From assembly GCA_031373455.1 (NCBI GenBank), contig JANMMR010000002.1, positions 1 through 37,495 on the forward strand: a stretch of 37,495 bases of DNA, read 5' to 3'. Origin of the DNA: Rhodoferax sp. (GTDB lineage: Bacteria; Pseudomonadota; Gammaproteobacteria; Burkholderiales; Burkholderiaceae_C). A program made the translations under genes and the position numbers. A model generated the notes under the pieces. It did no database searches and was not told the origin of the DNA. It saw only the letters and a list, made by a program, of their open reading frames with translations. Below, piece after piece: positions 3,851 to 33,612 of the stretch. The number at the start of each line of letters is the position of its first letter. Within the stretch, counting starts at the first letter, position 1.

Positions 3851-3888
3851 AAGTCACGAATTATATGAATATTTAGCTATTATTTTTA
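3851..3888 (+). promoter_or_regulatory. Bipartite motif instance A: AAGTCACG-N17-GCTATTATTTTT
   Basis: AAGTCACG is at 3851-3858, a 17-nt spacer at 3859-3875, and GCTAT at 3876-3880 followed by a T-rich run. The same boxes and spacing occur at 33495-33532 (+) and 14577-14614 (-). Confidence 0.5.
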
Positions 3889-3967
3889 TTGTAAAAAAGT
3901 ATATAAAATAAACAAAAATATAAATAAAATATAATATAAACAAATTTAAAGTTTCAATTTCGACAAT

Positions 3968-3987
3968 AATTAACACCCTTGTTAATT
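3968..3987. promoter_or_regulatory. Perfect palindrome AATTAACA-CCCT-TGTTAATT (candidate operator)
   Basis: Read directly: 8-bp arms with a 4-bp spacer, ending 16 nt upstream of the ATG at 4004. Confidence 0.35.
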
Positions 3988-4003
3988 AGTACACAGGCCC
4001 GCC

Positions 4004-5380
4004 ATGTTTTTAAAACAACTTGAGATCAGCCAAATCCGCGCCATCGAACACGCCGCCCTCGATTTCAGGGGTGAATCGGCGGCTGGCGCGGGTGCCATGC
4101 GCCAGCGCACGGTTTTGATCGGCGACAACGCTTGCGGCAAGAGCACCGTGCTGCGCACCGCCGCGCTGGTCCTGGCGGGCACTGAGGCGCTGAACGCAGC
4201 GGGCGCGCAGCCTGGCTGGTTGGGCGAGCCGGCGACTTGGGTGCGCAACGGCCAGAAGCAAGGCCACATCCGGGCCGTGCTCACGCCGGAAAAAGGCGCA
4301 GACATCACCGTCGCCCTGACGCTCCAGCCCGGGTGGAGCCTGCGCCAAACGCTGGCCAAAAACCAGAAGAGCCTGCAGGCGCTCGATGCCGCACTGGCGC
4401 AGTCGGCGCGGCGTTATTTCACGCTGGCTTATGGTGCCTCGCGCCGGCCGTCGCGCCTGGCGCAGGTCGGCGCGTCATCCAAAGCGGCCAGCGCGCCAGC
4501 CAACGCCGCCCGCGCAAGCGCCAGCCCTCTGCAACGCAGCGGGCAACTGGCCGGATTGTTGTCGCCCGATGCAGCGCTCGTCGCCTTTGAGCCGTGGGCG
4601 GCGGGCTTGAGCGCTCCGGGCAAAGCCGCGTTGCGGGCACTGCTCAAAGCCCTCCTGCCGGGCGTGGCCGTTGCCGGTATCGATGCCTCAGGCGGCCAGG
4701 TCGTCTTCAAAACGGCCGATGGCTCGATTCCTTTTGCGCAGCTCTCCCTGGCGCACCAGACCCTGATCGCCTGGTGTGGCGACCTGCTCTACCGCGTCGG
4801 CCAGGCCTTTGGCGCGGCAGCGTCGCCCCTCAAAACCAGCGGCCTGTTGCTGCTCGACGAGCTGGAGCTGCACCTGCACCCGCTGCACCAGCGCGGCGTG
4901 CTGGTGGCACTGTCTGCGGCTCTGCCCAACCTGCAAATCATGGCCACCAGCCACTCGCCGATGGTGGTGCAGCAACTTCGCCCGGGTGAGCTGGTGCTGC
5001 TGGAGCGGGCTACGCCGCAGCGCGGCGCAACAGCGCGGGTGGTGCAAGGCGACCCGAGCCAGTTGACGCTGGGCCAGTTGATGGCGCCGATGTTTGGCAT
5101 TGATTCAACCGACTCCACCCGGGTGGCGGCGCTGCGCAGCCGCGCGCGCTCGAGCCCGGGTCTGCTCGCGGCGCGTGACCACATCGAGCTGGCCAGCCTC
5201 TCGCCCATCCACCAGTTGCCGCCAGCCCTGCAGGCGCAACTCCAGGCCACCACCGAACTCACCGAGGCGGTCGCCCGCTCGGCCGGCCAACGCGCGCCCA
5301 AACTCGACCCGGCCAAGCTGCGCGAAAAAATGGGGGAACGCATCCAGAGCGCCGCCTTGCGTGTGGGGGGCGGCACATGA
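4004..5380 (+). CDS. ptuA: ABC/AAA_21-type ATPase, Septu PtuA-like
   Basis: 458 aa. Walker A LIGDNACGKSTVL, Walker B LLLLDELELHLHP, H-loop-like ATSHSP. The N-terminus MFLKQLEISQIRAIE is typical of RecF/SMC-like defence ATPases. It is translationally coupled to the downstream HNH gene. Confidence 0.8.
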   Translation: MFLKQLEISQIRAIEHAALDFRGESAAGAGAMRQRTVLIGDNACGKSTVLRTAALVLAGTEALNAAGAQPGWLGEPATWVRNGQKQGHIRAVLTPEKGADITVALTLQPGWSLRQTLAKNQKSLQALDAALAQSARRYFTLAYGASRRPSRLAQVGASSKAASAPANAARASASPLQRSGQLAGLLSPDAALVAFEPWAAGLSAPGKAALRALLKALLPGVAVAGIDASGGQVVFKTADGSIPFAQLSLAHQTLIAWCGDLLYRVGQAFGAAASPLKTSGLLLLDELELHLHPLHQRGVLVALSAALPNLQIMATSHSPMVVQQLRPGELVLLERATPQRGATARVVQGDPSQLTLGQLMAPMFGIDSTDSTRVAALRSRARSSPGLLAARDHIELASLSPIHQLPPALQAQLQATTELTEAVARSAGQRAPKLDPAKLREKMGERIQSAALRVGGGT

Positions 5381-6213
5381 TTGCCCTCTCGCGCAAGCCC
5401 GAGGGCATTCCTGCCAAATACCGCGGCGCCGGCCTGAAAAAAGCCATGGCGGCCTTGCTCGAGGCGTTTTATGCCAATGCCGGCGCGGTGCCCTTCAACC
5501 AGCAGAAAAACCTGCAAATCTGGACCGAGGCGAAACCCAACCTCAAGCTTGAATCCCACGACAAATGCGCCTACTGCGAAGCGCCCACCAGCGCCGTGAC
5601 ATTTGGCGATGTGGAGCACTTCCGGCCCAAAAGCGGCTACTGGTGGCTGGCCTACAGCTACGACAACTACGCCTACGCCTGCCAGATCTGCAACCAGGCC
5701 TTCAAGGGCGACCGGTTCGACGTTCGGGCGCCCAAACTGAATGCGCCGGTGCCACTGCCGGCCAAACGCCCGGCAAAAGCGGCGCTGGAGCAACTGGCCA
5801 CCCAGTTATGCCCGGACCCGGCCACCAGCAGCCAGGCCAGCCTGCGCGCCTTGTGGAAGGGCGAAAAAGCCGTGTTGCCGCACCCGTATCTGGAGCTGCC
5901 CGAAGCGCTGATGGCGTGGCAGGTGGATGAGATCAACCAGGAAGTCACGCTGGTTCCAGTGCCCGGCAGCAGCGCCTCAAAAGTGGCGGTGAAGGCGTGT
6001 GAAAAACTGCTCGGCATGAACCGCGAGGAATTGCGCCGACTGCGTTACCCGCAGTACGACCGGGTCTTCAGCCACGCCCTGGTGGTGCAGGAGGCCCGCA
6101 CCGAGGCGGTCCGCCAAATGGCCAAAACACGCTTGGCCGCCGCCGCCCGCGACGACCAACCCTTCGCCGGCATGACGCGTTATTTCCTGCGCCAGTGGGG
6201 TGTTTTGGTCTGA
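5377..6213 (+). CDS. ptuB: HNH endonuclease (TIGR02646-like), Septu PtuB-like
   Basis: 278 aa. HNH core CAYCEAP...GDVEHFRPKS...YACQICNQAFKGD. The start overlaps the ptuA-like stop as ATGA (5377-5380). Confidence 0.8.
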   Translation: MIALSRKPEGIPAKYRGAGLKKAMAALLEAFYANAGAVPFNQQKNLQIWTEAKPNLKLESHDKCAYCEAPTSAVTFGDVEHFRPKSGYWWLAYSYDNYAYACQICNQAFKGDRFDVRAPKLNAPVPLPAKRPAKAALEQLATQLCPDPATSSQASLRALWKGEKAVLPHPYLELPEALMAWQVDEINQEVTLVPVPGSSASKVAVKACEKLLGMNREELRRLRYPQYDRVFSHALVVQEARTEAVRQMAKTRLAAAARDDQPFAGMTRYFLRQWGVLV

Positions 6214-6315
6214 GCGACCGTGGGGGCTATTTTCCGCCGGGCCGCCCCAAGGAAAATGCGGCCCCCTCGGGGGGCAGGGAGCTACACGAAGTGAGCGACC
6301 GCGGGGGCCACTTTC
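6211..6315. repeat. Structured REP-like intergenic repeat (two 24-nt direct copies plus internal G5/C5 hairpins)
   Basis: 6211-6234 TGAGCGACCGTGGGGGCTATTTTC and 6292-6315 TGAGCGACCGCGGGGGCCACTTTC match at 21/24 positions. GGGGGCTATTTTCC 6222-6235 can pair with GGAAAATGCGGCCCCC 6251-6266. There is a C5/G5-6 hairpin at 6262-6274. Copy 1 starts at the ptuB-like stop and copy 2 covers the tolC stop. Confidence 0.6.
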
Positions 6316-7690
6316 ATTTCACCAAGAGGGCATTCACACCCGAGAGATCGCCGGCTGCGAGTGACCCACTGGCCTGGCGCAGGCGCAGGCCACCGACCAA
6401 GACGTCGTAACGCGCTTTGGCGAGGTCACGTTTGGTCTGAAACAACTGGCTTTGCGCGTTGAGCACATCGATGTTGATGCGCACGCCCACTTTGTAACCG
6501 AGCTGGTTGGCTTCGAGCGCGCTTTGGCTCGAGGATTCCGCCGCCTCCAGCGCCTTGACTTGGCCTTGGCCCGACAACACACCAAAATAGGTCGAACGCA
6601 CCGCCTGGGCCACCGACCGGCGGGCGCCTTCGAGGTCGATGCGGGCCTTGTCTTCCAGCGCCAGCGTTTCCTTGATGCGGTTTTGCGTAGCATGGCCGGT
6701 GTACAGCGGCATGTTCAACTGGATGCCGACGCTCGTGGAGTTGACCAGCGAGCCGATGTTGGTGTTGGTGTTGCCGCCGTCGTTGCGCACGATGCCGTAG
6801 TTGCCCACGATGTCCACCGTGGGTTTTTCACCGGCGCGTGCTTTGGCGGTTTCCAGCACCGCCACGTCCAGCGCGGTGCGCAACTGGCGCAGGCTTGGGT
6901 GGTTCATTTCCGACTGTTGCACCCAGGAGTTGACGTCCGCCGGCGTCACAGCCGGCAGGGTCAGGGGCAGGGCAACCGGTTTGGGTTCGGCGTTGAGTTT
7001 CCCGACCGCCTGGTCCAACGCCAGGCGCTTGACGAGCAGGTCGTTTTCAGCGGCCACTTGCTGGGCGATGACCAGGTCAAAACGGGCCTGCGCTTCGCGC
7101 GTGTCAGTGATGGTGGAAGTACCAACTTCAAAATTGCGCTTGGCGGCGGCGAGCTGCTCGGCAACGGCCGATTTTTGCGCCAGCACGAAGGTCAGGCTGT
7201 CTTTGGAGGCCAGCACGTCAAAATAAGCCTGGCTGATGCGCACCATCAAATCCTGGTCGGCCGCCAGCAACTGCGCTTCGGATTGCTCCAGCAATTTCTG
7301 GCCTTGATCAAATGCGACCTGGTTGGCCGGGCGGTACAGCGGGTAGCTGCCACTGACGCCGACCTGCTGGGTGCCAAATCCGCGGTCTGAACCGGGGCCG
7401 ATCGACGGCGACACCCACAGGTAAGACTGCGACGCAGCTGCCGCCAGCCCAGCGGTAGGCAACAGGCCGGCCCGGGCTTGCTCGCTGCGGGCGAGGTTGG
7501 CGTCGGCCTGCGCCTTGGCCGAAAGGAAAGCGGCATCGGAAACGCGGGCCAGCTCGTACAGTTCCACCAGGCTTTGGGCTTGGGCCGGCAAAGCCAGGAA
7601 ACCCAGCAAAGCGCCGGCTGCGGCCATCGCCGTGACAAACCTGCCGGCAAACCAGGCGCTGCGTCGGTGCAAAAGAGGGGAAGTTTTCAT
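6314..7690 (-). CDS. tolC: TolC-family outer-membrane efflux channel
   Basis: 458 aa. Signal peptide ends ...LALPAQAQSL. The TolC N-terminal LVELYELA.. motif is present, with a two-repeat architecture. Confidence 0.92.
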   Translation of the reverse strand: MKTSPLLHRRSAWFAGRFVTAMAAAGALLGFLALPAQAQSLVELYELARVSDAAFLSAKAQADANLARSEQARAGLLPTAGLAAAASQSYLWVSPSIGPGSDRGFGTQQVGVSGSYPLYRPANQVAFDQGQKLLEQSEAQLLAADQDLMVRISQAYFDVLASKDSLTFVLAQKSAVAEQLAAAKRNFEVGTSTITDTREAQARFDLVIAQQVAAENDLLVKRLALDQAVGKLNAEPKPVALPLTLPAVTPADVNSWVQQSEMNHPSLRQLRTALDVAVLETAKARAGEKPTVDIVGNYGIVRNDGGNTNTNIGSLVNSTSVGIQLNMPLYTGHATQNRIKETLALEDKARIDLEGARRSVAQAVRSTYFGVLSGQGQVKALEAAESSSQSALEANQLGYKVGVRINIDVLNAQSQLFQTKRDLAKARYDVLVGGLRLRQASGSLAAGDLSGVNALLVK

Positions 7691-7787
7691 GGGTGTCTTG
7701 GGCTTGCGGTGCGTTTGGGCAGTTTAGCAGGTTGCTACAAAAAAGCGAGTGTGAAGGGCCTGTCGCGGGGCCATTGCAGCCGCGGTG

Positions 7788-8132
7788 TCAGTAACGCGCC
7801 ACGCGCGGGTCGAGTTCCACTGACCAGGCTTCAATGCCGCCCGCGATGTTGGCGACCTGCTTAAAACCCTGGTTTTCGAGGAACTGGGCGATCCGCTGGC
7901 TGCGCGCGCCGTGGTGGCACAACACGGCGACTGGCCGGGTGGTGTCGAGTTCGGCCAGTCGGGCCGGCACACTGTTCATGGGGATGGCCACCAATTCATA
8001 ACCGGCATCGGGCGCAACGCTGGCGACGGCCAGCTCATTGGGCTCGCGCACATCCAGCAGCATCGGTTTGCCCGGCGGTTGGGCGGCGTCGAACCAGGCG
8101 GCCAGCTGGGCAGGGCGGATTTGCGGAATCAT
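7788..8132 (-). CDS. Rhodanese-like domain protein (sulfurtransferase)
   Basis: 114 aa. Active-site loop VLCHHGARS. Confidence 0.85.
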   Translation of the reverse strand: MIPQIRPAQLAAWFDAAQPPGKPMLLDVREPNELAVASVAPDAGYELVAIPMNSVPARLAELDTTRPVAVLCHHGARSQRIAQFLENQGFKQVANIAGGIEAWSVELDPRVARY

Positions 8133-8178
8133 GCGAAGTGAAGGCGAACGTGGAGGCGAAGGTGACTGGCCCGTGCCG

Positions 8179-8856
8179 TCAGAAGCTGAAACGGGACGGC
8201 TCGGGGAAATTCGCCAGGCGTGGCGCCACCGTGTCCCAGGGTTGTGTGGTGACGAAATCCGTGGCGGAGTTGCGGGTGACGAAGGTGGCGCGCATCATCG
8301 GCTCCTCGCCAACAATCGCGCCCAAGCGGCCGCCAATTTTCAGGCTGTCGAGCAGGCCGTGGGGAATCTCGGCGACCGAACCGCTGAGCAGGATCACGTC
8401 AAACGGGCCTTCAACCGGCGCGCCTTTGGCACCATCTGCGAGGCGGACTTCGGCGTTGTGCACACCGTTTGTTTGCAGGTTGGCGCGCGCCATTTCCACC
8501 AGCGCGGGCTCGATCTCCAGCGAGATCACGCGTTGTGCACGGTGAGCCAGCAGGGCCGCCATGAACCCGCTGCCAGCACCGATTTCCAGCACTTTTTCAT
8601 GTTTTTGCACCGCCAGATCCTGCAACAGGCGGGCCTCGACGCGTGGCGCCAGCATGCACTGGCCCAGGCGCGTGGCGTCGTCAAATGAACCACACAGCGG
8701 GATTTCCATGTCGACAAAGGCCAGGGCCTTGTGGGCAGCGGGCACAAAGTCTTCCCGCTTGATCACCGCCAGCAAATGCAGCACGTGCGCGTCCAGCACG
8801 TTCCACGGGCGGATTTGCTGCTCAATCATGTTGAAGCGGGCTTGTTCCAAATTCAT
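8179..8856 (-). CDS. Protein-L-isoaspartate O-methyltransferase family protein
   Basis: 225 aa. SAM-binding motif VLEIGAGSGFMAALLA. As far as I recall, the methyltransferase-rhodanese-tolC arrangement recurs in betaproteobacteria. Confidence 0.85.
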   Translation of the reverse strand: MNLEQARFNMIEQQIRPWNVLDAHVLHLLAVIKREDFVPAAHKALAFVDMEIPLCGSFDDATRLGQCMLAPRVEARLLQDLAVQKHEKVLEIGAGSGFMAALLAHRAQRVISLEIEPALVEMARANLQTNGVHNAEVRLADGAKGAPVEGPFDVILLSGSVAEIPHGLLDSLKIGGRLGAIVGEEPMMRATFVTRNSATDFVTTQPWDTVAPRLANFPEPSRFSF

Positions 8857-8920
8857 CTCGGCAACTCCAGGTATTCATGCGTGACGCGCCCAGCGGGGCA
8901 CTTGGTCAGCGCCGGCGATT

Positions 8921-11900: not shown

Positions 11901-12100
11901 ATCTTTTTCGAGACTTCACTTTCCACGATCTCGGGCGCGGCGCCGGGGTAGTCGGTGATGACCACCACCACCGGGAAATCGATGCTGGGAAACTGGTCAA
12001 CCTTCAGGCGCTGCAGGGAAAACAGACCCAGCACCACCAGCGCCAGCATGAGCATGGTGGCGAAAACCGGGTTTTTGATACTGACGCGTGTGAACCACAT
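8921..12100 (-). CDS. RND efflux pump inner-membrane permease (AcrB/HAE1-like)
   Basis: 1059 aa. The N-terminus [24 protein letters not shown] and the 12-TM/two-large-loop layout are typical of AcrB-family pumps. Confidence 0.95.
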
Positions 12101-14289: not shown

Positions 14290-14496
14290 ATGACATTCAA
14301 CCAGCACGAACTGTATTGGAACGACGGGTTTCTGAAGCAACCGAATCACCAGCGCGTGGTCCGCCTGTTGCGGGAAATGCAGTACAACTCCCACGCTGAT
14401 CGGCGCTGCAGTCAAAAACAGCCCGAGAACGACAGGCGCGAAGACCATTCCGTGTTGTCGCGCTGGTCTGAAAAAATCTGGCAAACGCTGCACTGA
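14290..14496 (+). CDS. Small hypothetical protein (68 aa), no recognisable family
   Basis: Strong SD AAGGGAGAG 6 nt upstream of the ATG at 14290. Third-position GC is moderately high. It is fully overlapped by a minus-strand ORF, so the coding strand is not certain. Confidence 0.4.
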   Translation: MTFNQHELYWNDGFLKQPNHQRVVRLLREMQYNSHADRRCSQKQPENDRREDHSVLSRWSEKIWQTLH

Positions 14497-14532: not shown

Positions 14533-14559
14533 CCTGGCTGCACAGTGTTGCAGCCCAGG
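14533..14559 (+). terminator. Hairpin CCTGGCTGCA-cagtgt-TGCAGCCCAGG downstream of the small ORF
   Basis: About 10-bp stem with one bulge, followed by TTATCTGTT (weak U-tract). Confidence 0.3.
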
Positions 14560-14576
14560 TTATCTGTTACATGCTA

Positions 14577-14614
14577 TTAAATATATAGCATAAAACACAA
14601 TTAATACGTGACTT
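14577..14614 (-). promoter_or_regulatory. Bipartite motif instance C: AAGTCACG-N17-GCTATATATTTA (minus strand)
   Basis: The reverse complement of 14607-14614 is AAGTCACG. The spacer at 14590-14606 is 17 nt. GCTAT is the reverse complement of 14585-14589. It overlaps the palindrome ATGCTAT-TAAATAT-ATAGCAT at 14571-14591. Confidence 0.5.
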
Positions 14615-14617
14615 GAT

Positions 14618-14656
14618 GGCCGATCTGGTGTGAAATACCGGCTGTCGGCCCTTTTG
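14618..14656 (+). terminator. Putative intrinsic terminator (GGCCGA...TCGGCC stem plus CTTTTG)
   Basis: Outer 6-bp GC stem and inner CUGGU/ACCGG stem, followed by CTTTTGG. Confidence 0.4.
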
Positions 14657-14810
14657 GCGCGCCAATAAACCCCAATTTGGGTATGACAGGTTCCTGCTGC
14701 GGCTTGCAAAACCGCTGCCGGACAGAGGGGAGCATGTATCCCGGCCAGCGGGGATTCATGCGTTTGTCACACCAACCGCCGACGATACGGCCTTCACAAC
14801 AGGAGATCCC

Positions 14811-25158: not shown

Positions 25159-25407
25159 GTGAACAAAAATACAGCCGCAGGGGTGCTCATTGCCTTGGTG
25201 TGTGGGTTTGCAGTTGCCCAGCCGAAACACAGCGACAAGGAAACCCAGCAAGATATCGCCCGCCACCGCGCGATGGCGGCGGCGCACGAGGGTGCGGCCA
25301 AATGCCTGGAAGCCGGAAAAAAGGAAGACGTGTGCCTGAAGGAATTGCTGACCGCCTGCAAAGGGCTTGCCATCGGCAAGTATTGCGGCATGAAACACGA
25401 GCATTGA
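25159..25407 (+). CDS. Small secreted Cys/His-containing protein (possible periplasmic metal-binding protein)
   Basis: 82 aa with a GTG start. Signal peptide ...CGFAVAQP. The mature part has 4 Cys and several His (HRAMAAAHEG..C..C..C..C..KHEH). SD GGAG is 11 nt upstream. Confidence 0.55.
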   Translation: MNKNTAAGVLIALVCGFAVAQPKHSDKETQQDIARHRAMAAAHEGAAKCLEAGKKEDVCLKELLTACKGLAIGKYCGMKHEH

Positions 25408-25442
25408 ATGACAGGCATTGAACGACGGGCATTGAACGATTT
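25401..25442. repeat. Three tandem 14-bp repeats GCATTGAAYGAYNK
   Basis: gcattgaatgacag / gcattgaacgacgg / gcattgaacgattt, read directly. Copy 1 contains the stop codon (25405-25407) of the small secreted protein. Confidence 0.8.
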
Positions 25443-25481
25443 CGCGCAACGGTGTCCAATACGGGTAGACAGGAGCTTCAC

Positions 25482-25982
25482 ATGAAACTGGTTTCACTTG
25501 TAGTCGCGGCGGCTTTGGCTTCGGGTTCGCTTGCTGCCAGCGCGCAACTTTCCTCGCCTCTGCCCGCCGGCACCGGCCCGGGCGTGCATGGCGCCAACAG
25601 CCCCTTTGCCCCGATCCAGGAGCGCAATGACGTGTTGCCGTGGTCAATGCTCAGCGAGGTCAAGACGCGGGCTGAAAAAAACAAGCTGCTGCCGGTGTTC
25701 ACGGCGCCCATCCAGGCGCTGAACCAGAAAACCCAGCGCGTTCAGGGTTTCATGATGCCGCTGGAGCCGGGCGACAAACAAAAGCATTTCCTGCTGAGCT
25801 CAGTGCCGCTCACCTGCGGATTCTGCGTACCCGGCGGGCCGGAGAGCATGGTTGAAGTGAAGACCAAAACGCCGGTGAAATATTCCATGGAAGTTGTCGT
25901 GGTAGAGGGCAAGTTCAACGTGTTGAGCGACGACCCCTATGGCCTCTATTACCGCATCACCGATGCGGTGAGTGTCAAGTAG
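25482..25982 (+). CDS. DUF3299-like periplasmic protein
   Basis: Start at MKLVSLVVAAALASG (signal peptide), SD AGGAG 6 nt upstream. The motif GFMMPLE....HFLLSSVPLTCGFCVPGGP matches my recollection of DUF3299. Confidence 0.8.
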   Translation: MKLVSLVVAAALASGSLAASAQLSSPLPAGTGPGVHGANSPFAPIQERNDVLPWSMLSEVKTRAEKNKLLPVFTAPIQALNQKTQRVQGFMMPLEPGDKQKHFLLSSVPLTCGFCVPGGPESMVEVKTKTPVKYSMEVVVVEGKFNVLSDDPYGLYYRITDAVSVK

Positions 25983-25986
25983 CAGG

Positions 25987-26415
25987 ATGCGGATGGGCCT
26001 GCGCGCCAGCCGGCCTCGCCGTTGGCTGGCGTGGGTTGCCGCCTGTGCACTCTTGCTGCTGCTGGTGCAAACACTGGGCGCATTGCATGGAGTGGTTCAC
26101 GCGGACGCCACCGCCATTGCCACCGGTGAATCCCAGGTAGCCGGCGACCATCCGGAACCAACGAGCAAAGCCCCATACAGGTCTGCGAAGAGCGAAACTG
26201 GCCGCGGCTTCCTCTTGTTGCTGTTTGCAGGGCATGAGAGCGATTCCGACTGCCGCGCCTACGACCAACTCTGCCATTTCGACGCCATCGCAGATTTCGC
26301 ATCCCCTGCCCTGGTGCTGGTGTTGCAAACTTTCGTACTCGTGCTTCTTGCGGGCCTGGCAAAAGCCCGTTGGCACGCGCTCCACCAAGCGCGTGGCCCA
26401 CCCCTGCTTCGTTGA
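25987..26415 (+). CDS. DUF2946-like small membrane/periplasmic protein
   Basis: Arg-rich N-terminus, then a TM WLAWVAACALLLLLVQTLGALHGVVH. It sits immediately upstream of a TonB-dependent receptor, as DUF2946 genes often do. The start is ambiguous (GTG 25972, ATG 25987 or 25993). Confidence 0.55.
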   Translation: MRMGLRASRPRRWLAWVAACALLLLLVQTLGALHGVVHADATAIATGESQVAGDHPEPTSKAPYRSAKSETGRGFLLLLFAGHESDSDCRAYDQLCHFDAIADFASPALVLVLQTFVLVLLAGLAKARWHALHQARGPPLLR

Positions 26416-26495
26416 CATTCTGATCTCAAGGTGTTGCCTGCCGGTGTTTTGCCGGCGGGCGGCTTCGCATTTCATTTTGATTCTTCGAGGTATCC

Positions 26496-28595
26496 ATGAA
26501 AAATTCATTCGCACGCCTTGCGGCGGGCACTGCGGTGCTTGTGGGTCTGTGCAGTCAAGCCCACGGGCAGGATAAAGGCATTGCCACGCTAAAAGAAATC
26601 ACCGTCACTGGTAACCCCCTGGGCGCCACGGACCCCATCGCGCCGGCCGCGCAGTACTCGGGCACCCGTCTGTTGTTGCGCTCGCAGACCACACTAGGTG
26701 AGACGCTGGACGGCACACCTGGCATCAGCAGTACCTACTTTGGCCCCAACGCGAGCCGGCCGATCATCCGAGGGCTTGACGGCGACCGCATCCGCATCCT
26801 ACAAAACAGCGGTGCCAGCGTCGACGCCTCGGGATTGAGTTTCGACCACGCCGCGCCCAGCGACCCCATCAGCATGGAGCGCGTTGAAGTGTTGCGGGGG
26901 CCGGGCGCGCTGTTGTACGGCGGCAGCGCCGTCGGCGGCGCCGTGAACGTGATCGACAGCCGGATTCCACGGGGCGCACTGTTTGGCGCAGAGGGCGGCG
27001 TTGGCGGCAAGGCCGATCTGGGTTTTACCAACGGCAATGCCGAACGTGGCGCCGCCTTAGCCCTGGAAGCTGGCAATGCGCGCTTGGCTATCCATGCCGA
27101 TGCCTTCAACCGCACCAGCAGCGACGTGACGGTGCCGGTTTCCCTGCCCTGCAGCAAGTCGGGCTCACCCGTGCAGGGCAACACCATCTGCAATTCCGGG
27201 GCCCAGACGCGCGGTGGCGCACTGGGTGGATCGATGCTGTTCGACCGCGGCTACCTGGGCGCGTCGGTCAGCGATTACGCGTCAAACTACGGGACCGTGG
27301 CCGAAGACGCGGTGACGATCGGCATGAAGTCGAAACGCTACGCGCTGGAAGGTGAAGTCAGGGGATTGGCCGGCCCGCTGCTATCCATCAAGGGCCAGTT
27401 CAGCCGCAGCGAGTACGAACACACGGAATTCGATGCGGGCGTTGCCGGCACAGTGTTCAGGAATGCCGGCAACGACTTGCGTCTGACGGCGCGCCATGCC
27501 CGGCTCGGGCCACTCGAGGGTGTGATAGGCGCGCAGTTCGAGAGTTCACAATTTTCGGCCGACGGCACAGAAGCCTTTGCGCCCTACAGCCGTACCGACC
27601 AACGCGCACTGTTCGCCTACGAAGAATTGCCTCGGCCATGGGGCAAGCTGAGTTTTGGCGCGCGGCTGGAGTCGGTCACCGTGGCGTCAATGGGCAGTCC
27701 ACGGGTGCCCCGGTTTATGCCGGGCAGCCGCAGCTTCGATCCGGCCAGTGTTGCGATGGGCGCTTTGTGGAACCTCTCGCCGGCCTGGCAAATCACGGCC
27801 AACCTGGCCTACAGTGAACGTGCACCCAAAGACTACGAACTGTTTGCCGACGGCCCGCACATTGCCACCAGCGCTTACGAAGTGGGCAATGCCAGCTTCA
27901 CCAAGGAGCGATCCAGCAATCTCGATATTGGTGTGACATGGAAGAACGGTGCCAACCGTTTTGGCCTGAGTGCATTTGTCAACCAGTTCAGCAACTTCAT
28001 TGCACTGGACGCGACGGGTGTGCTGCGTGACAGCGACGGCAATGGCGCCGGTGGCGTCGGCGTGACGGACTCTGGCAACAGTGACAACACCTCCGCCGAA
28101 TCCGGCGGCACAGCGGGCATCCTGCCCGAGTTTGCGTATGCCCAGGTTCCGGCACGCTTCACCGGGCTGGAACTGAGTGGCAATGTCCGCCTGCTGGATA
28201 GCGGGCAAACGCTTGACCTGGAAGTCAGTGGCGACTGGGTGCGCGCCATCAACACGGCCACCGGCCAGAACCTGCCCCGCATCGCCCCACTGCGTGTAGG
28301 TGCCGCCTTGGTCTGGGCGCGAGGGCCTTGGGGCGTGCGGTTGGGTGTCAACCACGTGGCGGCGCAAGGGCAGGTGGCGCCGGGTCAACCAACAACGAGC
28401 GTTTACTCGCTGCTGAACCTCGCGGCCAGTTACCGGCAAACGGTGGGTCGGGCCAGCTACTTCTGGTTTGCACGCATCGGCAACTTGGGCGATGTGTTGG
28501 CATATTCCGCCACATCAATCCTCACCCAAACGGCGCCGGGCAAATCGCCGTTGCCAGGACGCACCGCCAAAGTCGGCCTGCAGGTGAATTTCTAG
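26496..28595 (+). CDS. TonB-dependent outer-membrane receptor (copper/metal receptor, OprC-like)
   Basis: 699 aa. Signal peptide ...CSQAHGQ. Plug-domain motifs (IRGLDGDRIRILQNG, VEVLRGPGALLYG). C-terminal beta-barrel ends in ...GLQVNF. Confidence 0.92.
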   Translation: MKNSFARLAAGTAVLVGLCSQAHGQDKGIATLKEITVTGNPLGATDPIAPAAQYSGTRLLLRSQTTLGETLDGTPGISSTYFGPNASRPIIRGLDGDRIRILQNSGASVDASGLSFDHAAPSDPISMERVEVLRGPGALLYGGSAVGGAVNVIDSRIPRGALFGAEGGVGGKADLGFTNGNAERGAALALEAGNARLAIHADAFNRTSSDVTVPVSLPCSKSGSPVQGNTICNSGAQTRGGALGGSMLFDRGYLGASVSDYASNYGTVAEDAVTIGMKSKRYALEGEVRGLAGPLLSIKGQFSRSEYEHTEFDAGVAGTVFRNAGNDLRLTARHARLGPLEGVIGAQFESSQFSADGTEAFAPYSRTDQRALFAYEELPRPWGKLSFGARLESVTVASMGSPRVPRFMPGSRSFDPASVAMGALWNLSPAWQITANLAYSERAPKDYELFADGPHIATSAYEVGNASFTKERSSNLDIGVTWKNGANRFGLSAFVNQFSNFIALDATGVLRDSDGNGAGGVGVTDSGNSDNTSAESGGTAGILPEFAYAQVPARFTGLELSGNVRLLDSGQTLDLEVSGDWVRAINTATGQNLPRIAPLRVGAALVWARGPWGVRLGVNHVAAQGQVAPGQPTTSVYSLLNLAASYRQTVGRASYFWFARIGNLGDVLAYSATSILTQTAPGKSPLPGRTAKVGLQVNF

Positions 28596-28666
28596 CAAGC
28601 AAGGGGGCACGGCGACATTGAAGGGTGCCTCAGCGGGTTGGTAGACTGGGCGATCGCCGCCGCCCT

Positions 28667-29629
28667 ATGAACCTGCCGACCTTCACGCCTGTCCTGGCGT
28701 CGCTGATCCCCGTCATCCTGTTGATCACCACCGGTTTTGTCGCCGCGCGGGCGGGGTGGCTGCGCCCCGAATCTGTCAAAGACATCTCAACCCTGCTGTT
28801 TCTGGTGCTCACGCCGGCGCTGATGTTCCGCGCCATGAGCCGCGTGCACCTGGAGAGCCTCAACCTGCTGCCAATTGCCGCCTATTTCACGGCGGCGGTT
28901 GCGCTGTTTGGGGCCGTGGTGTGGATCGGGCGCGGCACAGGCCGGGCGGCCGCAATGGCTATTTCGGCCACGTTCGGCAACACCGTGGCGATAGGTATAC
29001 CGTTGATCGGCCTGGCCTATGGTGAAGCGGCCCTGGTGACGCTCTTCACCATCGTCGCGGTGCACGCGCTGATCCTGCTGACGCTCACCACCGTGGTGTT
29101 TGAGCTCGCCGTGGCACGCGAACAGCCGGCCCACGCAGCCGGTGGCGCCAGGCGCTTGATGGTGACCATCGCTGTGGCCGTCAAAAACGGCATCATCAAC
29201 CCGGCGACTTTGCCCACGCTGCTGGGCCTGGCCTTTGCGCAGACCGGTCTGGACCTGCCGGTGGTGCTGGACAACACCTTGAAACTGCTGGCCGGCGCGA
29301 TGGCCCCCGTGGCGCTGATGCTGGTTGGCGTAACGCTGTTTGGCGCGCGGGTGGGCGAGCTGATGCGCCCTGCGCTGGGCTTGACGCTGCTCAAAAACGT
29401 GCTGCTGCCGCTCCTGGTGACGGCCTCCGGTTGGGCCTGGGGATTGTCGGGCCAGACCTTGACGGTGATGGTAGTCGCGGCGGCCATGCCGATTGGCGCC
29501 AATGCCTTTCTGTTTGCCCAGCGTTACAACGTGGCGCAAACGCTGGTCACGGCCAGCGTGGCGGTTTCTGCAAGCTTGGCGCTGGCCTCCGTGCCGCTGG
29601 TGATGGCGTTGGCGGCCGTGCTTAAATAA
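28667..29629 (+). CDS. AEC (auxin efflux carrier) family transporter
   Basis: Start chosen at MNLPTFTPVLASLIPVILL. About 10 TM segments in a two-repeat layout. Confidence 0.85.
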   Translation: MNLPTFTPVLASLIPVILLITTGFVAARAGWLRPESVKDISTLLFLVLTPALMFRAMSRVHLESLNLLPIAAYFTAAVALFGAVVWIGRGTGRAAAMAISATFGNTVAIGIPLIGLAYGEAALVTLFTIVAVHALILLTLTTVVFELAVAREQPAHAAGGARRLMVTIAVAVKNGIINPATLPTLLGLAFAQTGLDLPVVLDNTLKLLAGAMAPVALMLVGVTLFGARVGELMRPALGLTLLKNVLLPLLVTASGWAWGLSGQTLTVMVVAAAMPIGANAFLFAQRYNVAQTLVTASVAVSASLALASVPLVMALAAVLK

Positions 29630-29639
29630 GCCCCAACCC

Positions 29640-30827
29640 ATGCTCAACACGTTACATAAAACTGCCATCCCGCCCGAAGACGAAGCCCTGCGTGCGCCGG
29701 TGCGGGCATTTTTGCGCGAGGCATTGCGTGGCGTTCCGGCCCACGTGCGGGCGAAGTCCTGGATGGGTTACGACGCGGCCTTCAGCCGTGCGCTGGGCCA
29801 GCGCGGCTGGCTCGGTATCACCTTGCCGCGTGAATACGGCGGCGGCGGGCGCAGCGCGTTTGCGCGGTATGTGCTGGTGGAGGAGTTCCTCAACGCGGGC
29901 GCCCCCGTGGGCTCGCACTGGATCGCAGACCGCCAAAGCGCGCCCCTGATTCTGAAATACGGCACCGAGGCGCAAAAGCGGTTTTACCTGCCGCCCATTT
30001 GCCGCGGCGAATCATTTTTTTGCATCGGCATGAGTGAGCCTAATTCGGGCTCTGACCTGGCCAGCGTCAAAAGCCGTGCCACCCCAACCACGGCCAATGG
30101 CGTGAGCGGCTGGCAGCTCAATGGCCAGAAAATCTGGACCAGCAATGCCGCCAACTGCCACCACATGATCGCGCTCGTGCGCACCTCGGGCGAGGCGGCA
30201 GACCGTCAAAAAGGTCTCTCGCAGCTCATCGTCGATCTCTCCTTGCCCGGCGTTACCGTGCGCCCGATCCGCGATTTGACGGGCGACAGCCAGTTTTGCG
30301 AGGTGTTTTTTGAAAACGTGGCCCTCCGGCACGATGCGCTGATTGGCGCCGAGGGCGGCGGCTGGGCGCAGGTCACCGCCGAACTCGCCTACGAGCGCAG
30401 CGGGCCGGAGCGCATTTACTCCAGCATGGTGCTGTTCGATGAGTGGCTGGCGTACATCCGCACCGCCAGGGGCCAGTCGCCCGAATCCGCGCAACTCGCG
30501 GGCAAACTCCTCAGCCAGCTGGCGCCGCTGCGCGCGCTCTCCATCGCGGTGACCGAAAAAATTGTGCAAGGCCAAAGCCCGGTGGTGGAAGCGGCGCTGG
30601 TCAAAGACCTCGGTGTGACGCTGGAGCAACTCATGCCCACAGCGATCGCCGACGACCTGTTCTCGCGGTCCTCACCCGGCACCACACCTGACACGGCACC
30701 CGACATCCCGCTGGAATTGCTTCAGGCATTGACCTATGTGACCCAGGTGGCACCATCGTTCTCGCTGCGCGGCGGCACGCGCGACATCCTGCGCGGCATG
30801 ATCGCGCGCGGGCTGGGGCTGCGCTGA
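29640..30827 (+). CDS. Acyl-CoA dehydrogenase (full three-domain)
   Basis: 395 aa. FAD/substrate motif FCIGMSEPNSGSDLAS and WQLNGQKIWTSNA. Confidence 0.92.
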   Translation: MLNTLHKTAIPPEDEALRAPVRAFLREALRGVPAHVRAKSWMGYDAAFSRALGQRGWLGITLPREYGGGGRSAFARYVLVEEFLNAGAPVGSHWIADRQSAPLILKYGTEAQKRFYLPPICRGESFFCIGMSEPNSGSDLASVKSRATPTTANGVSGWQLNGQKIWTSNAANCHHMIALVRTSGEAADRQKGLSQLIVDLSLPGVTVRPIRDLTGDSQFCEVFFENVALRHDALIGAEGGGWAQVTAELAYERSGPERIYSSMVLFDEWLAYIRTARGQSPESAQLAGKLLSQLAPLRALSIAVTEKIVQGQSPVVEAALVKDLGVTLEQLMPTAIADDLFSRSSPGTTPDTAPDIPLELLQALTYVTQVAPSFSLRGGTRDILRGMIARGLGLR

Positions 30828-30837
30828 TACACGTGCA

Positions 30838-31749
30838 ATGAAGGCCGCAACCGTGAACCCCGGATCCATCGACGACCTCTTCGCCAAGGCGCTGCATGAC
30901 CTGCTGGCGGCGCATTGCACACCGGCCGTGGTGCGGGCGGTTGAACGCGGCGACTCGCCCCAAGCCGCTCAAGACCTGTGGCAGGCCCTGGACGCCTCGG
31001 GTTTTGCCAACGCCATGGTTCCCGAAGCCCTGGGCGGTGCGGGATTGTCACTGGCGCAGGCCTTCCCCCTGTTTGAGTTGTGTGGCCGGTTTGTGGTGCC
31101 ACTGCCGCTGGCTGAAACCATGCTCCTGCGGGCCTGGGCGGCGCAACGCGGCATCGAGTGGCCCAATGCCTGTGTCGGGCTTGAATGGGTGAAGGCGACC
31201 GATCCAAACGTTGAAAGCACCGAGCCGCCAGATGTCCGCGTGATGCAGGCTGCCGTGCTTGCCGCGCAAATGGCCGGCGCCTTGCAGCGCGTGCTGGAGA
31301 TGACGCTGCAGTACGCCAATGAGCGCCAGCAGTTCGGCCGTGCGCTGGGCAAGTTCCAGGCGATCCAGCACCAGCTGGCACAGATGGCCGAGCACAGCCT
31401 GGCGGCCCACATGGCAGCGCAAATCGGTTGCTCGGGCGTGGCTCTGGCCTCAACTCCCGCCGCTCCAGCCTTCATGCCGCAGCGCCTGCGCGCCGGCATC
31501 GCCAAGGCGCGCGCCAGCGAAGCGGCCGTGGTGGTGGCAGACCTGGCGCACTCGATCCACGGCGCCATCGGTTTCACCGAGGCCTTTGACCTGCAACTGT
31601 TCACGCGCCGCCTGCACACCTGGCGGCAGACCGCAGGGGCTGAATCCTATTGGCACCGTGACATTGGCGCGGCGCTGGTGCACCAGCACGATGGTGCGGT
31701 GCTGGACCTGCTGCGCCAGGCAACTGACCCAAGCCCGGCAACGCCCTGA
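30838..31749 (+). CDS. Acyl-CoA dehydrogenase family protein, short form lacking the SEPxxGSD motif
   Basis: 303 aa. The C-terminal ACAD helix domain (YANERQQFGRALGKFQAIQHQLAQM, HGAIGFTEAFDLQLFTRR) is present, but the middle-domain motif is not seen. Confidence 0.85.
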   Translation: MKAATVNPGSIDDLFAKALHDLLAAHCTPAVVRAVERGDSPQAAQDLWQALDASGFANAMVPEALGGAGLSLAQAFPLFELCGRFVVPLPLAETMLLRAWAAQRGIEWPNACVGLEWVKATDPNVESTEPPDVRVMQAAVLAAQMAGALQRVLEMTLQYANERQQFGRALGKFQAIQHQLAQMAEHSLAAHMAAQIGCSGVALASTPAAPAFMPQRLRAGIAKARASEAAVVVADLAHSIHGAIGFTEAFDLQLFTRRLHTWRQTAGAESYWHRDIGAALVHQHDGAVLDLLRQATDPSPATP

Positions 31750-31793
31750 AAACATTCATCCAAGCACCCAACCACACAACCGAAACCAACACC

Positions 31794-32585
31794 ATGGGCC
31801 AATTTTTAAAATCCTCGCGCAACGGCGTCATCCTCACCCTCACCATGAGCCAGCCCGAGACGCGCAACGCCTTGACCGGCAACACAGCGGTGCAGGAATT
31901 TGTAGATACCTGCGCTGCCATCGCGCTGGACGCCAGCGTGCGTGTGGTGATCCTCACGGGCGAAGGGCCGGTGTTCTCATCGGGCGGCAACGTGAAAGAC
32001 ATGAAGCGCTTCTTCGAGCAGGACATTTCGCCCGAGTTGATCCGCGAGGAATACCGCAACGGCATCCAGCGCCTGCCCAAGGCGTTGTACAACCTGGACG
32101 TGCCGGTGATTTGCGCCGTCAATGGCGCGGCGATTGGCGCAGGCATGGATTTGACCTGCATGTGCGACATCCGCATCGCGGCGGACACGGCCACCTTCGC
32201 CGAGAGTTTCGTGCGTGTGGGCATCATCCCGGGCGACGGCGGCGCCTGGCTGTTGCCGCGCATTGTTGGCAAATCCAAAGCTGCCGAAATGGCTTTCACG
32301 GGCGAATCGCTCACGGCTGCAGAAGCCTTGGCATGCGGGCTTGTTTCGCGCGTGGTGCCGGCGGGCGAGTTGATGGCCGAAGCGCAAAAACTTGCCAACA
32401 AAATCGCCGCCAACCCGGGCGGCGTGTTGCGCATGACCAAACGCCTGCTGCGAGAAGGGGAGCGCGCCAGCCTCGAGTCGCTCCTGGAATTGTCAGCCGG
32501 TTACCAGGCCATCGCCCACAAAACGGCGGACCACAAGGAAGCCGTAATGGCCTTCATCGAAAAAAGAAAACCCTCCTTCACCTGA
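31794..32585 (+). CDS. Enoyl-CoA hydratase/isomerase family protein
   Basis: 263 aa. Motifs VILTGEGPVFSSGGNV and AVNGAAIGAGMDL. Confidence 0.92.
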   Translation: MGQFLKSSRNGVILTLTMSQPETRNALTGNTAVQEFVDTCAAIALDASVRVVILTGEGPVFSSGGNVKDMKRFFEQDISPELIREEYRNGIQRLPKALYNLDVPVICAVNGAAIGAGMDLTCMCDIRIAADTATFAESFVRVGIIPGDGGAWLLPRIVGKSKAAEMAFTGESLTAAEALACGLVSRVVPAGELMAEAQKLANKIAANPGGVLRMTKRLLREGERASLESLLELSAGYQAIAHKTADHKEAVMAFIEKRKPSFT

Positions 32586-32603
32586 CGCGCGGGTGGCGCA
32601 CAG

Positions 32604-32675
32604 GCGAAGGAGGGTTCAGGGCTTGAAGGGCTCTAAGGACTAGAAGGTTTTTAAGGCCTTTAGGGTCTTTAAGAA
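32604..32675. repeat. Degenerate 9-bp-periodic repeat array (about 8 units, NYTNAAGGN)
   Basis: gcgaaggag ggttcaggg cttgaaggg ctctaagga ctagaaggt ttttaaggc ctttagggt ctttaagaa, read directly. It has stops in all frames and lies between convergent genes. Confidence 0.55.
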
Positions 32676-32706
32676 TTCAGAGCCCAAAGCCCAAGGGTTT
32701 TGGCCT

Positions 32707-33177
32707 TCAGGACTTGGGAATCACCACTGTGTCGATCACATGGATCACGCCATTGTCGGCGGCGATGTCGGTGCTCACCACTTTGGCGTTGTTCACCATC
32801 ACGCCACCGGCCGTGGTGATGCTCAGGTCGGAGCCCTGCACGGTTTTGACATTGCCGGCTTTCACGTCGGCGGCCATCACCTTGCCGGGGACCACGTGGT
32901 AGGTCAACACGGCGGTCAATTTCGCCTTGTCTTTCAAAAGCGCGTCCAGATCGGCTTTGGGGATCTTGGCAAACGCCGCGTCAGTAGGTGCAAACACAGT
33001 GAACGGGCCCGGGCCTTTGAGCGTGTCGATCAGCCCTGCAGCGGTGAGCGCCGCGGCCAGCGTTTTGAAATTGCCGGCTGAAACGGCGGTGTCGACGATG
33101 TCTTTGGCTTGGGCGCCAACGGCCATGCCGAGTGTCAGAACGGAAGCAAGAATTGCCTTTTTCATGAGTTTCTCCAA
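32707..33177 (-). CDS. Fasciclin (FAS1) domain protein, secreted
   Basis: 156 aa. Signal peptide ...GAQAKD. FAS1 motifs [10 protein letters not shown] and [11 protein letters not shown]. Confidence 0.9.
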
Positions 33178-33428
33178 TGAAGCAAAGAGACCCTTGGGCC
33201 AAGCCCTGGGTCAACGCCAAAATGGGCGTAGGCGAATTCTATACCGATTAGTCAGTAACGGACTGTAAAGTCTATAAAAAAACTAAACGGTTTCAAATTA
33301 CCCGTGTTTCGAGTCAAAACTTACATCCAGACAAGGCTCCATTCGCCGTTGAAAGGCCTTTGGATGGGTGGAGAAAGTCGTTTCTCGCAAGCTGCGTGGA
33401 ACGTCTGCACGCGCAACTCAGGGTGGTG

Positions 33429-33612
33429 AAACTTGAAATTCAAATTATTGAAATACAAAATTTAACAATACATTAGTCAAAAAAAATGGATATTAAGTCA
33501 CGCATTTGTTAAATAAATTGCTATATATTTTAACTATAAATTGAATAAAATATAGTCAAATATAAACATAAATTATGTAAATTACTATTATTACGGAGGA
33601 ATAATACCCAAT
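33429..33612 (+). promoter_or_regulatory. AT-rich island B
   Basis: I count 11 G/C per 60 nt in both 33481-33540 and 33541-33600. It has no ORF above 8 codons. It ends with SD GGAGG (33595-33599) and ATG (33613). Confidence 0.5.
33495..33532 (+). promoter_or_regulatory. Bipartite motif instance B: AAGTCACG-N17-GCTATATATTTT
   Basis: AAGTCACG is at 33495-33502, a 17-nt spacer at 33503-33519, and GCTAT at 33520-33524 followed by ATATTTTA. Confidence 0.5.

Follow-up and report, generated by a model that had tools for sequence, protein, structure and literature searches.

Bacterial interspersed mosaic elements (BIMEs) are bound by integration host factor (IHF) and gyrase, and work on REPINs and their REP-associated tyrosine transposases (RAYTs) reportedly points to long vertical persistence of the repeats together with their cognate protein. 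Two accounts describe repetitive extragenic palindromes (REPs), BIMEs and the Rhizobium-specific intergenic mosaic elements (RIMEs) as extragenic mosaic repeats, in which a palindromic unit is combined with other motifs and with protein-binding sites (PMC2817692, PMC3333891). REPs themselves are 20-40 nt long, palindromic and rich in G+C, and they carry a GTAG or CGTC tag (PMC3733652). Here we analyse an intergenic element of Rhodoferax sp. that is marked by a bipartite motif, AAGTCACG (box 1) and a second box beginning with GCTAT (box 2), held 17 nt apart. It occurs in a stretch of 37,495 nt (GenBank assembly GCA_031373455.1, contig JANMMR010000002.1, positions 1 to 37,495), which as a whole is called the window. 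On balance, the sequence evidence slightly favours the view that this motif is the invariant core of a clade-specific, modular, AT-rich and REP/BIME-like intergenic family, apparently undescribed, and that the core is a candidate protein-recognised DNA site.

In distribution and mosaic build the Rhodoferax family behaves like the REP/BIME/REPIN repeats of Enterobacteria and Pseudomonas and the RIMEs of rhizobia. It is high-copy, clade-specific and strictly extragenic, its parts are set at regular spacing, and its sites are the 3' ends of genes and the gaps between co-directional genes, seldom divergent promoter regions. Those repeats, however, conserve a palindrome, whereas the Rhodoferax family conserves a pair of boxes that is not palindromic and has a rigid spacer of 17 nt. 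The palindrome that accompanies the Rhodoferax core is accessory, AT-rich (GTTAACA-N4-TGTTAAC or ATACCCAA-TTGGGTAT) and free of a GTAG/CGTC tag, and the modules are 75-90% A+T overall in a 62% G+C genome. Because the defining sequence features of REP, BIME and RIME are absent, the family is not filed as a member of any of them.

Other systems show partial likeness. The uptake signal sequences (USS) of Pasteurellaceae and the DNA uptake sequences (DUS) of Neisseria have a short core with phased AT-rich segments, are orientation-independent, come in dialects and are common inside genes at ~1 per kb. The Rhodoferax element likewise has a short invariant core (AAGTCACG, as compared with AAGTGCGGT in the USS) with phased AT-rich segments, is orientation-independent, shows lineage 'dialects' and keeps its motif without conservation of the flanks. 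USS and DUS, however, lack both the obligate further boxes (second and third) and the palindrome at a fixed distance of 60-130 nt, and the Rhodoferax octamer is not over-represented alone. The Correia elements of Neisseria (Correia repeat enclosed elements, CREE, or Neisseria miniature insertion sequences, NEMIS) contain promoter-like hexamers and IHF sites and can alter the expression of their neighbours. Like such miniature inverted-repeat transposable elements (MITEs), the Rhodoferax modules are intergenic, ~100-200 bp long, present or absent between close relatives and equipped with promoter-like hexamers. MITEs, whose general features have been described (PMC3184786), are nevertheless defined by terminal inverted repeats and target-site duplications. 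In the Rhodoferax modules the former were not found in the three window islands, and the one filled/empty site compared shows only a doubtful direct repeat. MITE copies are usually similar over the full length, whereas the Rhodoferax copies are similar only in the boxes. Promoters of alternative sigma factors of the extracytoplasmic function (ECF) type also consist of two short boxes whose spacer is fixed at 16-17 nt, and their motif, too, is clade-specific and repeated at many loci. In the Rhodoferax element, in contrast, both the spacer and the DNA around it are extremely AT-rich, orientation does not follow the genes, and copies are scarce in the regions that need promoters.

A bipartite core with an exact spacer

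The window contains three copies of AAGTCACG-N17-GCTAT, where none is expected (0 in 100 dinucleotide-preserving shuffles). They are named here by the position of box 1 as 3851 (+), 14614 (-) and 33495 (+); in an earlier note on this DNA, 33495 was copy B and 14614 copy C. The three instances listed in that note are borne out (3851-3880 (+), 33495-33524 (+) and 14614-14585 (-)), and no further copies came up in the window when the extended pattern was searched with 3 mismatches allowed. By itself, the AAGTCACG octamer occurs four times in the window against 0.9 expected, the fourth site, at 5942, lying inside coding DNA without box 2. The consensus originally given for box 2, GCTATWTATTT, had to be widened, as the 3851 copy (GCTATTATTTT) does not fit it; the common form is GCTATWWWTTT.

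The coupling of the two boxes became evident from 409 kb of clade DNA, in which AAGTCAC[AG] occurs 84 times on both strands. At 65 of these sites GCTAT follows, always after exactly 17 nt, and at none of the 84 does it follow at any other distance from 10 to 25 nt. Box 2 is just as dependent on its partner, since only 1 of 61 GCTATWWWTTT sequences in the clade DNA lacks box 1. The 19 AAGTCAC[AG] outside cores comprise five degenerate cores, and the rest correspond to about the background frequency. From the exact spacing (65/65), the box coupling (60/61) and the conservation of the boxes in orthologues described below, the two boxes appear to behave like a protein-recognised site, as had been supposed.

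Modular architecture

Two forms of the module can be distinguished. In the short form (class 1), represented in the window by 14614, a palindromic unit is followed by a linker of ~50 nt, box 1, 17 nt, and a box 2 that is completed to GCTAT-N7-ATAGC(A); 3' of it the sequence returns abruptly to ordinary G+C-rich DNA. The linker carries phased T-tracts (GAATTTTCACGATTTTCAAGCTTTTCAGCC), with peaks of T/A autocorrelation at 9-10 and 19-21 nt. The long form (class 2), represented by 3851 and 33495, starts with an AT-rich left arm of ~50 nt, with the family consensus TTnAAATAnnTnTTT ~47-33 nt 5' of box 1. Box 1, 17 nt, box 2 and a 53-nt AT tail (85-90% A+T) then lead to a third box, ACGA, at +89. 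This box 3 has the consensus wAACGAww; although the tails are unalignable, 16 of 33 long copies have the first letter of its ACG between +88 and +90. A palindromic unit lies farther 3', at +116 or +126, in about a quarter of the long-form copies, and 25 of 35 lack both the second arm and the palindrome.

The palindromic unit with which the short form begins is perfect and AT-rich and belongs to one of two types. P1 has the form wwwGTTAACA-TGGG/CCCA-TGTTAACwww with covarying outer stem positions, and P2 has the form ATACCCAAwwTGGGGTAT. Within the 409 kb, 31 of 37 such units are located within 150 nt of a core. Of the 33 upstream palindromes, 27 are centred between -59 and -62 relative to box 1; the others are five outliers at -51 and -72/-73, which differ from -61 by one helical turn, equal to one T-tract unit, and one doubtful match at -38. 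Downstream centres are found at +116/117 or +126/127. Upstream and downstream positions thus differ by 177 nt, or ~17 turns.

Close to the core, A(A/G)TA is conserved just 3' of box 2, which itself has an invariant TAT followed by A/T. The spacer shows a weak consensus, AATTTATTnAATTTATT, and unrelated copies match at up to 16 of 17 spacer positions. At the level of the family, therefore, the spacer is not free or unrelated, as it had seemed from the three window copies, since long-form copies tend towards this consensus. Nor is the proposed choice of recognition rather than shared ancestry supported: with further common modules at fixed distances beyond the two boxes, the copies constitute one repeat family.

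Distribution across genomes

A genome-wide search, which the earlier note had named as a check, revealed dozens of exact cores per assembly (at least 13-23 listed) in one Rhodoferax clade. The pattern AAGTCACR-N17-GCTATWWWTTT was scanned against 185,579 species-representative genomes, one per species, and yielded at least 91 exact-pattern stretches. Of the matches listed, 57 come from three metagenome-assembled genomes (MAGs) of Rhodoferax sp. from glacier-fed streams, with at least 21 in VAR_83, at least 23 in OTE_75 and at least 13 in SOY_35. The remaining 34 listed matches are scattered over ~30 unrelated genomes, mostly AT-rich, with one or two stretches each, which is the chance expectation for a pattern of ~34 bits. 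An nhmmer profile of the core detects 72 copies in the 409 kb of clade DNA, including degenerate ones that keep AAGTCAYG, GCTAT and TAGC. All copy numbers are lower bounds, and the density of ~1 copy per 6-20 kb is only rough.

Contigs of the same study and GCA_031380145.1 match the window at 98-99% identity. The element was not found in 80 more distant loci from a metagenome scan with the fasciclin protein (≤86% identity), which are too distant for filled/empty pairs. A blastn search of the short-form module against plasmid and phage records gave no match, and the one match in a scan of viral contigs, in a contig of 35% GC, is taken as chance. Our literature search returned no relevant record for the motif sequence or for Rhodoferax AT-rich intergenic repeats, and exact-protein look-ups of PtuA, GlpQ and the glyoxalase-like protein found none on record.

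Assemblies are prone to break or gap at the AT-rich modules. In locus L001 (clade and related loci are cited by L numbers) an N-run at 4397-4495 falls exactly on the pdxH-fasciclin island, the L180 contig ends 77 nt before glpQ, and the contigs of L057, L010, L012 and L080 end at or near a core. Because of these breaks and gaps, the copy number of the family in MAGs is probably underestimated.

Selection, gain and loss

Orthologues of the window copies were fetched via neighbouring proteins and thus independently of the motif. The 14614 orthologue in L176 (99% identical DNA) shows one change, in the spacer. In L177 (GlpQ 92% identical as protein, gene 87% as DNA) the P2 palindrome (20/20), box 1 (8/8) and box 2 (10/11) are kept, with 8 of 17 spacer positions changed and a linker of 56% identity. 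At the fasciclin locus, L002/L003 (fasciclin gene 99% identical DNA; ~96-98% over the aligned contigs) retain 7/8 positions of box 1 and 11/11 of box 2, with 5/17 changes in the spacer. The more distant L182-L187 (fasciclin 94% as protein, gene 84% as DNA) keep box 1 (8/8), the 17-nt spacing, ACGA at exactly +89 and a P2 unit at +116, which reads ATACCCAGTCTGGGTAT in L182; here box 2 is retained at 7/11 positions and the spacer has changed at 8/17. When pooled, the changes amount to 1/24 in box 1, 5/33 in box 2 and 21/51 in the spacer (Fisher's test against the spacer: box 1, p = 0.0008; box 2, p = 0.015). Conservation of the boxes in orthologous intergenic regions, another check named earlier, is thus observed: boxes and palindrome are kept, and spacer and linker diverge. 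The boxes are also strongly conserved in the pairs L007/L051, L055/L059 and L011/L064, but these are discounted as evidence because both members were ascertained through the exact motif.

Non-orthologous copies have a best flank identity of ~0.7, and judged by their sequences the paralogous copies appear to be old. Modules show presence/absence polymorphism between relatives, a MITE-type feature. L177 harbours an extra long-form module, ~175 nt of AT-rich DNA between tetR and a 68-aa gene, at a site that is empty in the window (~14130), L176 and L178. This module (AAGTCACA-N17-GCTATTATTTT; ~1150-1330 of JGI 3300083086 contig Ga0654621_0000857) is inserted after …GCGTCAAGATT. A 5-bp direct repeat, CAAGA, is possible at this insertion, but in the one filled/empty comparison it is doubtful and the adjoining 8-10 nt are unaligned. 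In L189 and L190 the pdxH-fasciclin spacer is G+C-rich, 320 nt long and without a module.

A different kind of change is seen in a sister genome (L178 ~1660-1720, L188 ~2150-2250; ENA BUSI22-1_SAMN19433708 scaffold_45). The 17-nt spacing, box 2 and AGTAGCA/AATAGTA are kept, and box 1 is replaced by GGCCGACG or GGCCGTCA, each after TA or ATA. One of these modules also has a P2-like palindrome. With two examples only, we read the replacement of box 1 as a putative lineage-specific dialect.

At L011, two short-form modules (3681-3745 and 5201-5267) lie ~1.5 kb apart, each after paralogous 3' gene ends, and the copy at 1944-1980 of L064 is closer to the non-orthologous L011 copy, including ~100 nt of flank. 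This pattern suggests that modules recombined with each other or that gene and module were duplicated together.

Gene context

Every copy examined is intergenic relative to the called genes. Elements are present in 37 of 177 co-directional, 18 of 54 convergent and 4 of 50 divergent regions, and are thus 4.5-fold more frequent in convergent than in divergent regions (p = 0.004). Within co-directional regions the core runs with the genes in 18 cases and against them in 19. Short-form copies in L025, L045, L055 and L059, checked by hand, lie 6-60 nt from the stop codon of a convergent gene. Neighbouring cores within one locus are co-oriented in 4 cases and opposed in 10, at irregular distances. 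No tRNA or Rfam RNA gene was detected 3' of any core (tRNA scans found tRNAs only far from cores; Rfam was run on the window and 18 clade loci). The balanced orientation and the excess of convergent regions speak against the directional readings into neighbouring genes that had been put forward for each window copy. The context distribution is of the REP/BIME type and not that of protein-gene promoters. The three window copies are ordinary family members and not dedicated regulators of Septu, glpQ/tetR-RND or pdxH.

Alternative explanations

Several known classes of element were considered and rejected. A DNA uptake sequence would have the octamer over-represented outside cores, which it is not (65/84 inside). 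The ends of a larger transposon would be expected as regular inverted pairs of cores, which the multi-copy loci do not show, and a replichore-polar motif such as the FtsK-orienting KOPS or a Chi-like sequence does not agree with neighbours that are co-oriented in 4 cases and opposed in 10. The consensus sequences of the sites for IHF, Fis, H-NS, LysR-type regulators (LTTR), parS, CtrA and hix were compared by eye, and none fits all copies.

It is somewhat unlikely that the core is a promoter for a clade-specific alternative sigma factor or another polymerase, mostly making short non-coding or antisense RNAs. Box 1 would then be a -35-type and box 2 a -10-type element, the T-tract linker would be UP-like or curved, transcription would start near A(A/G)TA, and the long form would give an AU-rich RNA of ~50-90 nt up to box 3 or the palindrome. 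Much of the anatomy suits such a promoter: the rigid 17-nt spacing, the invariant TAT then A/T in box 2, the phased T-tracts directly 5' of box 1 and the very meltable DNA 3', the conserved A(A/G)TA, and the selection on the boxes. In some co-directional cases, for example L053, L067 and the PtuA gene, the module is moreover the sole conserved non-coding element upstream of a gene that has no Shine-Dalgarno sequence. The motif is not a sigma-70 promoter, as had been noted, since a consensus scan finds no site made of box 1 and box 2 in the three islands. If the TAT of box 2 is taken as the start of a -10 element, the -35 position reads CACGNN, and the housekeeping promoter of the clade's tRNA-Tyr operon (L026) is canonical, TTTACG-18-CATAAT. 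As the housekeeping type differs, a distinct class is conceivable; to our knowledge, however, the motif fits no sigma consensus (sigma-70, -54, -32, -28, or ECF including ECF41 TGTCACA-N16-CGTC). Promoters would also hardly be expected to be unbiased in orientation towards downstream genes (18 versus 19), to be enriched in convergent regions, in which the core would be directed at a gene's 3' end, in places at 6-8 nt from the stop codon (L025, L045), and to be 4.5-fold depleted in divergent promoter regions. Furthermore, the palindromic unit is 5' in one form and 3' in the other, neither structure nor sequence is conserved among the putative transcripts, the scans detected no known RNA gene 3' of a core, and box 1 is replaced wholesale in the sister lineage.

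A purely selfish, non-autonomous element of the MITE type or the palindrome-associated transposable element (PATE) type, in which a transposase or recombinase from another locus would recognise boxes and palindrome as its binding sites or hairpins, without any function for the host, is rather unlikely. The discrete presence/absence polymorphism, the strictly intergenic and thus 'safe' sites, and the foreign composition (10-25% GC in a 62% GC genome) are what such an element would show. So is the multi-site build, which recalls att sites or the ends of transposons; the short form has a hairpin at each end (the palindrome on the left and GCTAT-N7-ATAGC on the right). PATEs derived from IS200/IS605 carry subterminal hairpins at both ends, whereas 25 of 35 long-form copies have neither the second arm nor a palindrome. 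A box 1 dialect would be expected if the sites co-evolve with an enzyme. Yet the flank identity of ~0.7 reveals no recent burst, the consensus of the left end bears no relation to that of the right end, a search for terminal inverted repeats found none and only the doubtful CAAGA came up as a direct repeat, cores do not stand in inverted pairs, and no homologous sequence turned up in plasmid and phage records searched with a short-form module. Conservation of boxes and palindrome at single loci, with spacer and linker randomised, is likewise unexpected for decaying dead copies. That the element works as RNA, in stabilisation within 3' untranslated regions or operons, in termination or in protein binding as REP hairpins do, is highly improbable. 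It is placed in transcribed untranslated spots, at 3' ends and between co-directional genes, and the palindromic unit has compensatory stem changes (G..C versus A..T at the outer position). But the non-palindromic boxes occur in both orientations to the flanking transcription (18 versus 19), and neither strand has a conserved fold. RNAalifold yields an energy of 0.0 for both strands, z-scores of single sequences range from ~0 to +1, the structure of the tails does not exceed that of shuffled sequences, and Rfam at gathering thresholds reports nothing at elements in the window and 18 clade loci. A scan for intrinsic terminators is negative at the elements in the three islands, and T-runs follow the AT-rich palindromes inconsistently, A-runs being as frequent.

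Proposed mode of action

For the REP/BIME-like family with a protein-recognised core, which we favour, the following mode of action can be envisaged. The element would serve as a docking platform at the level of double-stranded DNA, where a protein or complex with sequence specificity would read box 1 and box 2 across 2.5 helical turns of bendable, meltable AT-rich DNA. The palindromic unit, acting as a dimer site or cruciform, would be kept in constant helical register on one or the other side, and the T-tract linker would supply intrinsic curvature. Modules would have entered intergenic DNA as discrete units, of which the observed insertion polymorphism is a trace, and would persist mainly where promoters are undisturbed, that is, at the 3' ends, in the convergent regions and in the co-directional regions of either orientation in which they are found. 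Vertical inheritance would follow, with purifying selection on boxes and palindrome and randomisation of the rest, as seen for two window copies. The reader may be a host architectural or topology factor, as IHF and gyrase are for BIMEs, or a domesticated mobile-element enzyme, as in the REPIN-RAYT system. Possible consequences include a topology or boundary role at the ends of transcription units and the element's own maintenance.

A number of points weigh against this proposal. The docking site is a prediction from sequence, and nearly all family copies come from fragmented MAGs and were ascertained via the exact motif; only three orthologue comparisons are free of this bias. In one of them, L182, box 2 is conserved at only 7/11 positions. 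The gene calls behind the context counts stem from our own crude caller based on G+C at third codon positions (GC3), applied to the same loci as the background. No near-identical paralogous copies that would point to current mobility were found among the clade copies. A search of the three islands for terminal inverted repeats gave only low-complexity AT matches and internal palindromes, and no clean target-site duplication is visible at the one filled/empty site (L177 versus window). Finally, the core is asymmetric and has a promoter-like geometry, with boxes ~24 bp apart centre to centre, a TATA-like box 2, upstream T-tracts and meltable DNA downstream. Because of this geometry, RNA polymerase with an unrecognised sigma factor is still a candidate reader.

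The three modules in the window and their neighbours

The three motif copies had been assigned to three AT-rich islands. Two of these are indeed large (3766-4026 and 33404-33630; ~230-260 nt of 25-27% GC in a window of 62% GC), but the third, around 14541-14639, is a short patch.

The left AT-rich arm of the long-form 3851 module (3803..3850, +; set by the island limits and the family left-arm consensus) begins right after the stop codon of the upstream glyoxalase-like gene (2972-3802). The core (3851..3886, +; nhmmer E=1.9e-9) is made up of box 1 AAGTCACG (3851-3858), the 17-nt spacer (3859-3875) and box 2 GCTATTATTTT (3876-3886). The AT-rich tail (3887..3965, +) contains ACAA at exactly +89 (3940-3943), which is box 3 ACGA with one mismatch. 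It is followed by a P1 unit (TAATTAACA-cccT-TGTTAATTA; 3967..3988, no strand assigned) with its centre at +127 from box 1 and 9-nt arms that are 100% complementary across 4 nt. The copy precedes a Septu anti-phage system at 4004-6213 (PADLOC; PtuA 8e-71, PtuB 2e-34), and the PtuA start codon, which has no Shine-Dalgarno sequence, is located 15 nt 3' of the palindrome. The copy had been said to point, if directional, into this ATPase-HNH module, but a perfect palindrome stands between the core and the start codon. The G+C content of the Septu genes is native-like (~68%). Between ptuB and an outer-membrane efflux gene, a repeat of a separate, G+C-rich family at 6216-6311 (…gagcgaccgtgggggcc…ccgccgggccgccccaaggaaaatgcggccccctcggggggcagggagc…) has matches of 86-91% identity in L008, L058 and L072 and resembles an ordinary REP-like element of the clade.

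The short-form 14614 module lies between glpQ and the conserved 68-aa gene. In element orientation it consists of a P2 unit (ATACCCAAATTGGGGTTTAT; 14665..14684, no strand assigned; centre at -61 from box 1), a linker that follows the family consensus with phased T-tracts (14615..14664, -) and the core (14572..14614, -; nhmmer E=2.7e-12). The core comprises box 1 AAGTCACG at 14614-14607, the spacer at 14606-14590 and box 2 GCTATATATTT at 14589-14579, and AATAGCA at 14578-14572 completes the inverted repeat GCTAT-N7-ATAGC. The 68-aa gene (14290-14496, +) has a good Shine-Dalgarno sequence (GGAGA-7-ATG) and no Pfam family; an exact copy is present in GCA_031380145.1 and a diverged one in L177. 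A G+C-rich hairpin (14534-14560) follows this gene, and in L176 a 69-aa open reading frame (ORF) is called directly upstream of it.

The long-form 33495 module is located between pdxH and the fasciclin gene. Its left AT-rich arm (33433..33494, +; from the sequence and the island limits) is followed by the core (33495..33530, +; nhmmer E=1.2e-8) with box 1 at 33495-33502, spacer at 33503-33519 and box 2 GCTATATATTT at 33520-33530. In the AT-rich tail (33531..33603, +) a box-3-like ACGG (33593-33596) is found at +98, shifted by 9 nt, and a P2 unit (ATACCCA-ATA-TGGGTAT; 33604..33620, no strand assigned) is centred at +117 from box 1. An ORF with Shine-Dalgarno sequence, ATG and GD repeat, towards which this copy had been thought to point, proved to be an artefact: the supposed Shine-Dalgarno sequence overlaps box 3 (ACGG within ACGGAGG), the ATG sits inside the palindrome ATACCCAATATGGGTAT, and the ORF does not occur in the orthologous module of L182. 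Its 'GD repeat' (96 aa, antisense to pdxH) arises from a (GGCGAT)n hexamer run at 33625-33667, just past the pdxH stop codon, and both run and ORF are missing from the orthologous L182 locus. On inspection, the AT-rich tails contain no ORF common to the copies.

Upstream of the fasciclin gene, a moderately AT-rich segment (…ttataccgattrgt…aaaccgtttggtata…) is kept in distant relatives (window 33235-33300; L097 1570-1640; L135 2370-2440; L189 1400-1470). Probably this segment is regulatory for the fasciclin gene itself and has no relation to the repeat family. In the sister lineage (L188 40-1208) a RES-Xre toxin-antitoxin pair (PF08808, PF09722) takes the place of pdxH upstream of the fasciclin gene.

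Significance

The islands break or gap some metagenome assemblies and thereby bias the contiguity of MAGs, and annotators may misread them as promoters or as horizontally acquired DNA beside defence genes such as Septu. In a wider biological role, the bipartite core, the palindrome and the curved linker would together serve, in cis, a clade-specific system that has escaped recognition and acts on transcription units. The element would then be either a new promoter class, read by an undescribed sigma factor or polymerase and giving rise to short or antisense transcripts where genes end, or a topological boundary or roadblock, bound by protein, that marks the ends of transcription units. In both cases the DNA specificity would co-evolve between sister lineages (AAGTCACG versus GGCCGNCN); as it stands, we regard this wider role as unlikely. 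The family is unusual in combining a very high A+T content with a G+C-rich host, a multi-box spacing that is exact to the nucleotide over ~180 bp, signs of purifying selection on a core that is bipartite and non-palindromic, and a box 1 that is swapped in a sister lineage. It offers a testable case of co-evolution between a genome-wide cis element and a putative DNA-binding factor in uncultured cold-stream Comamonadaceae.

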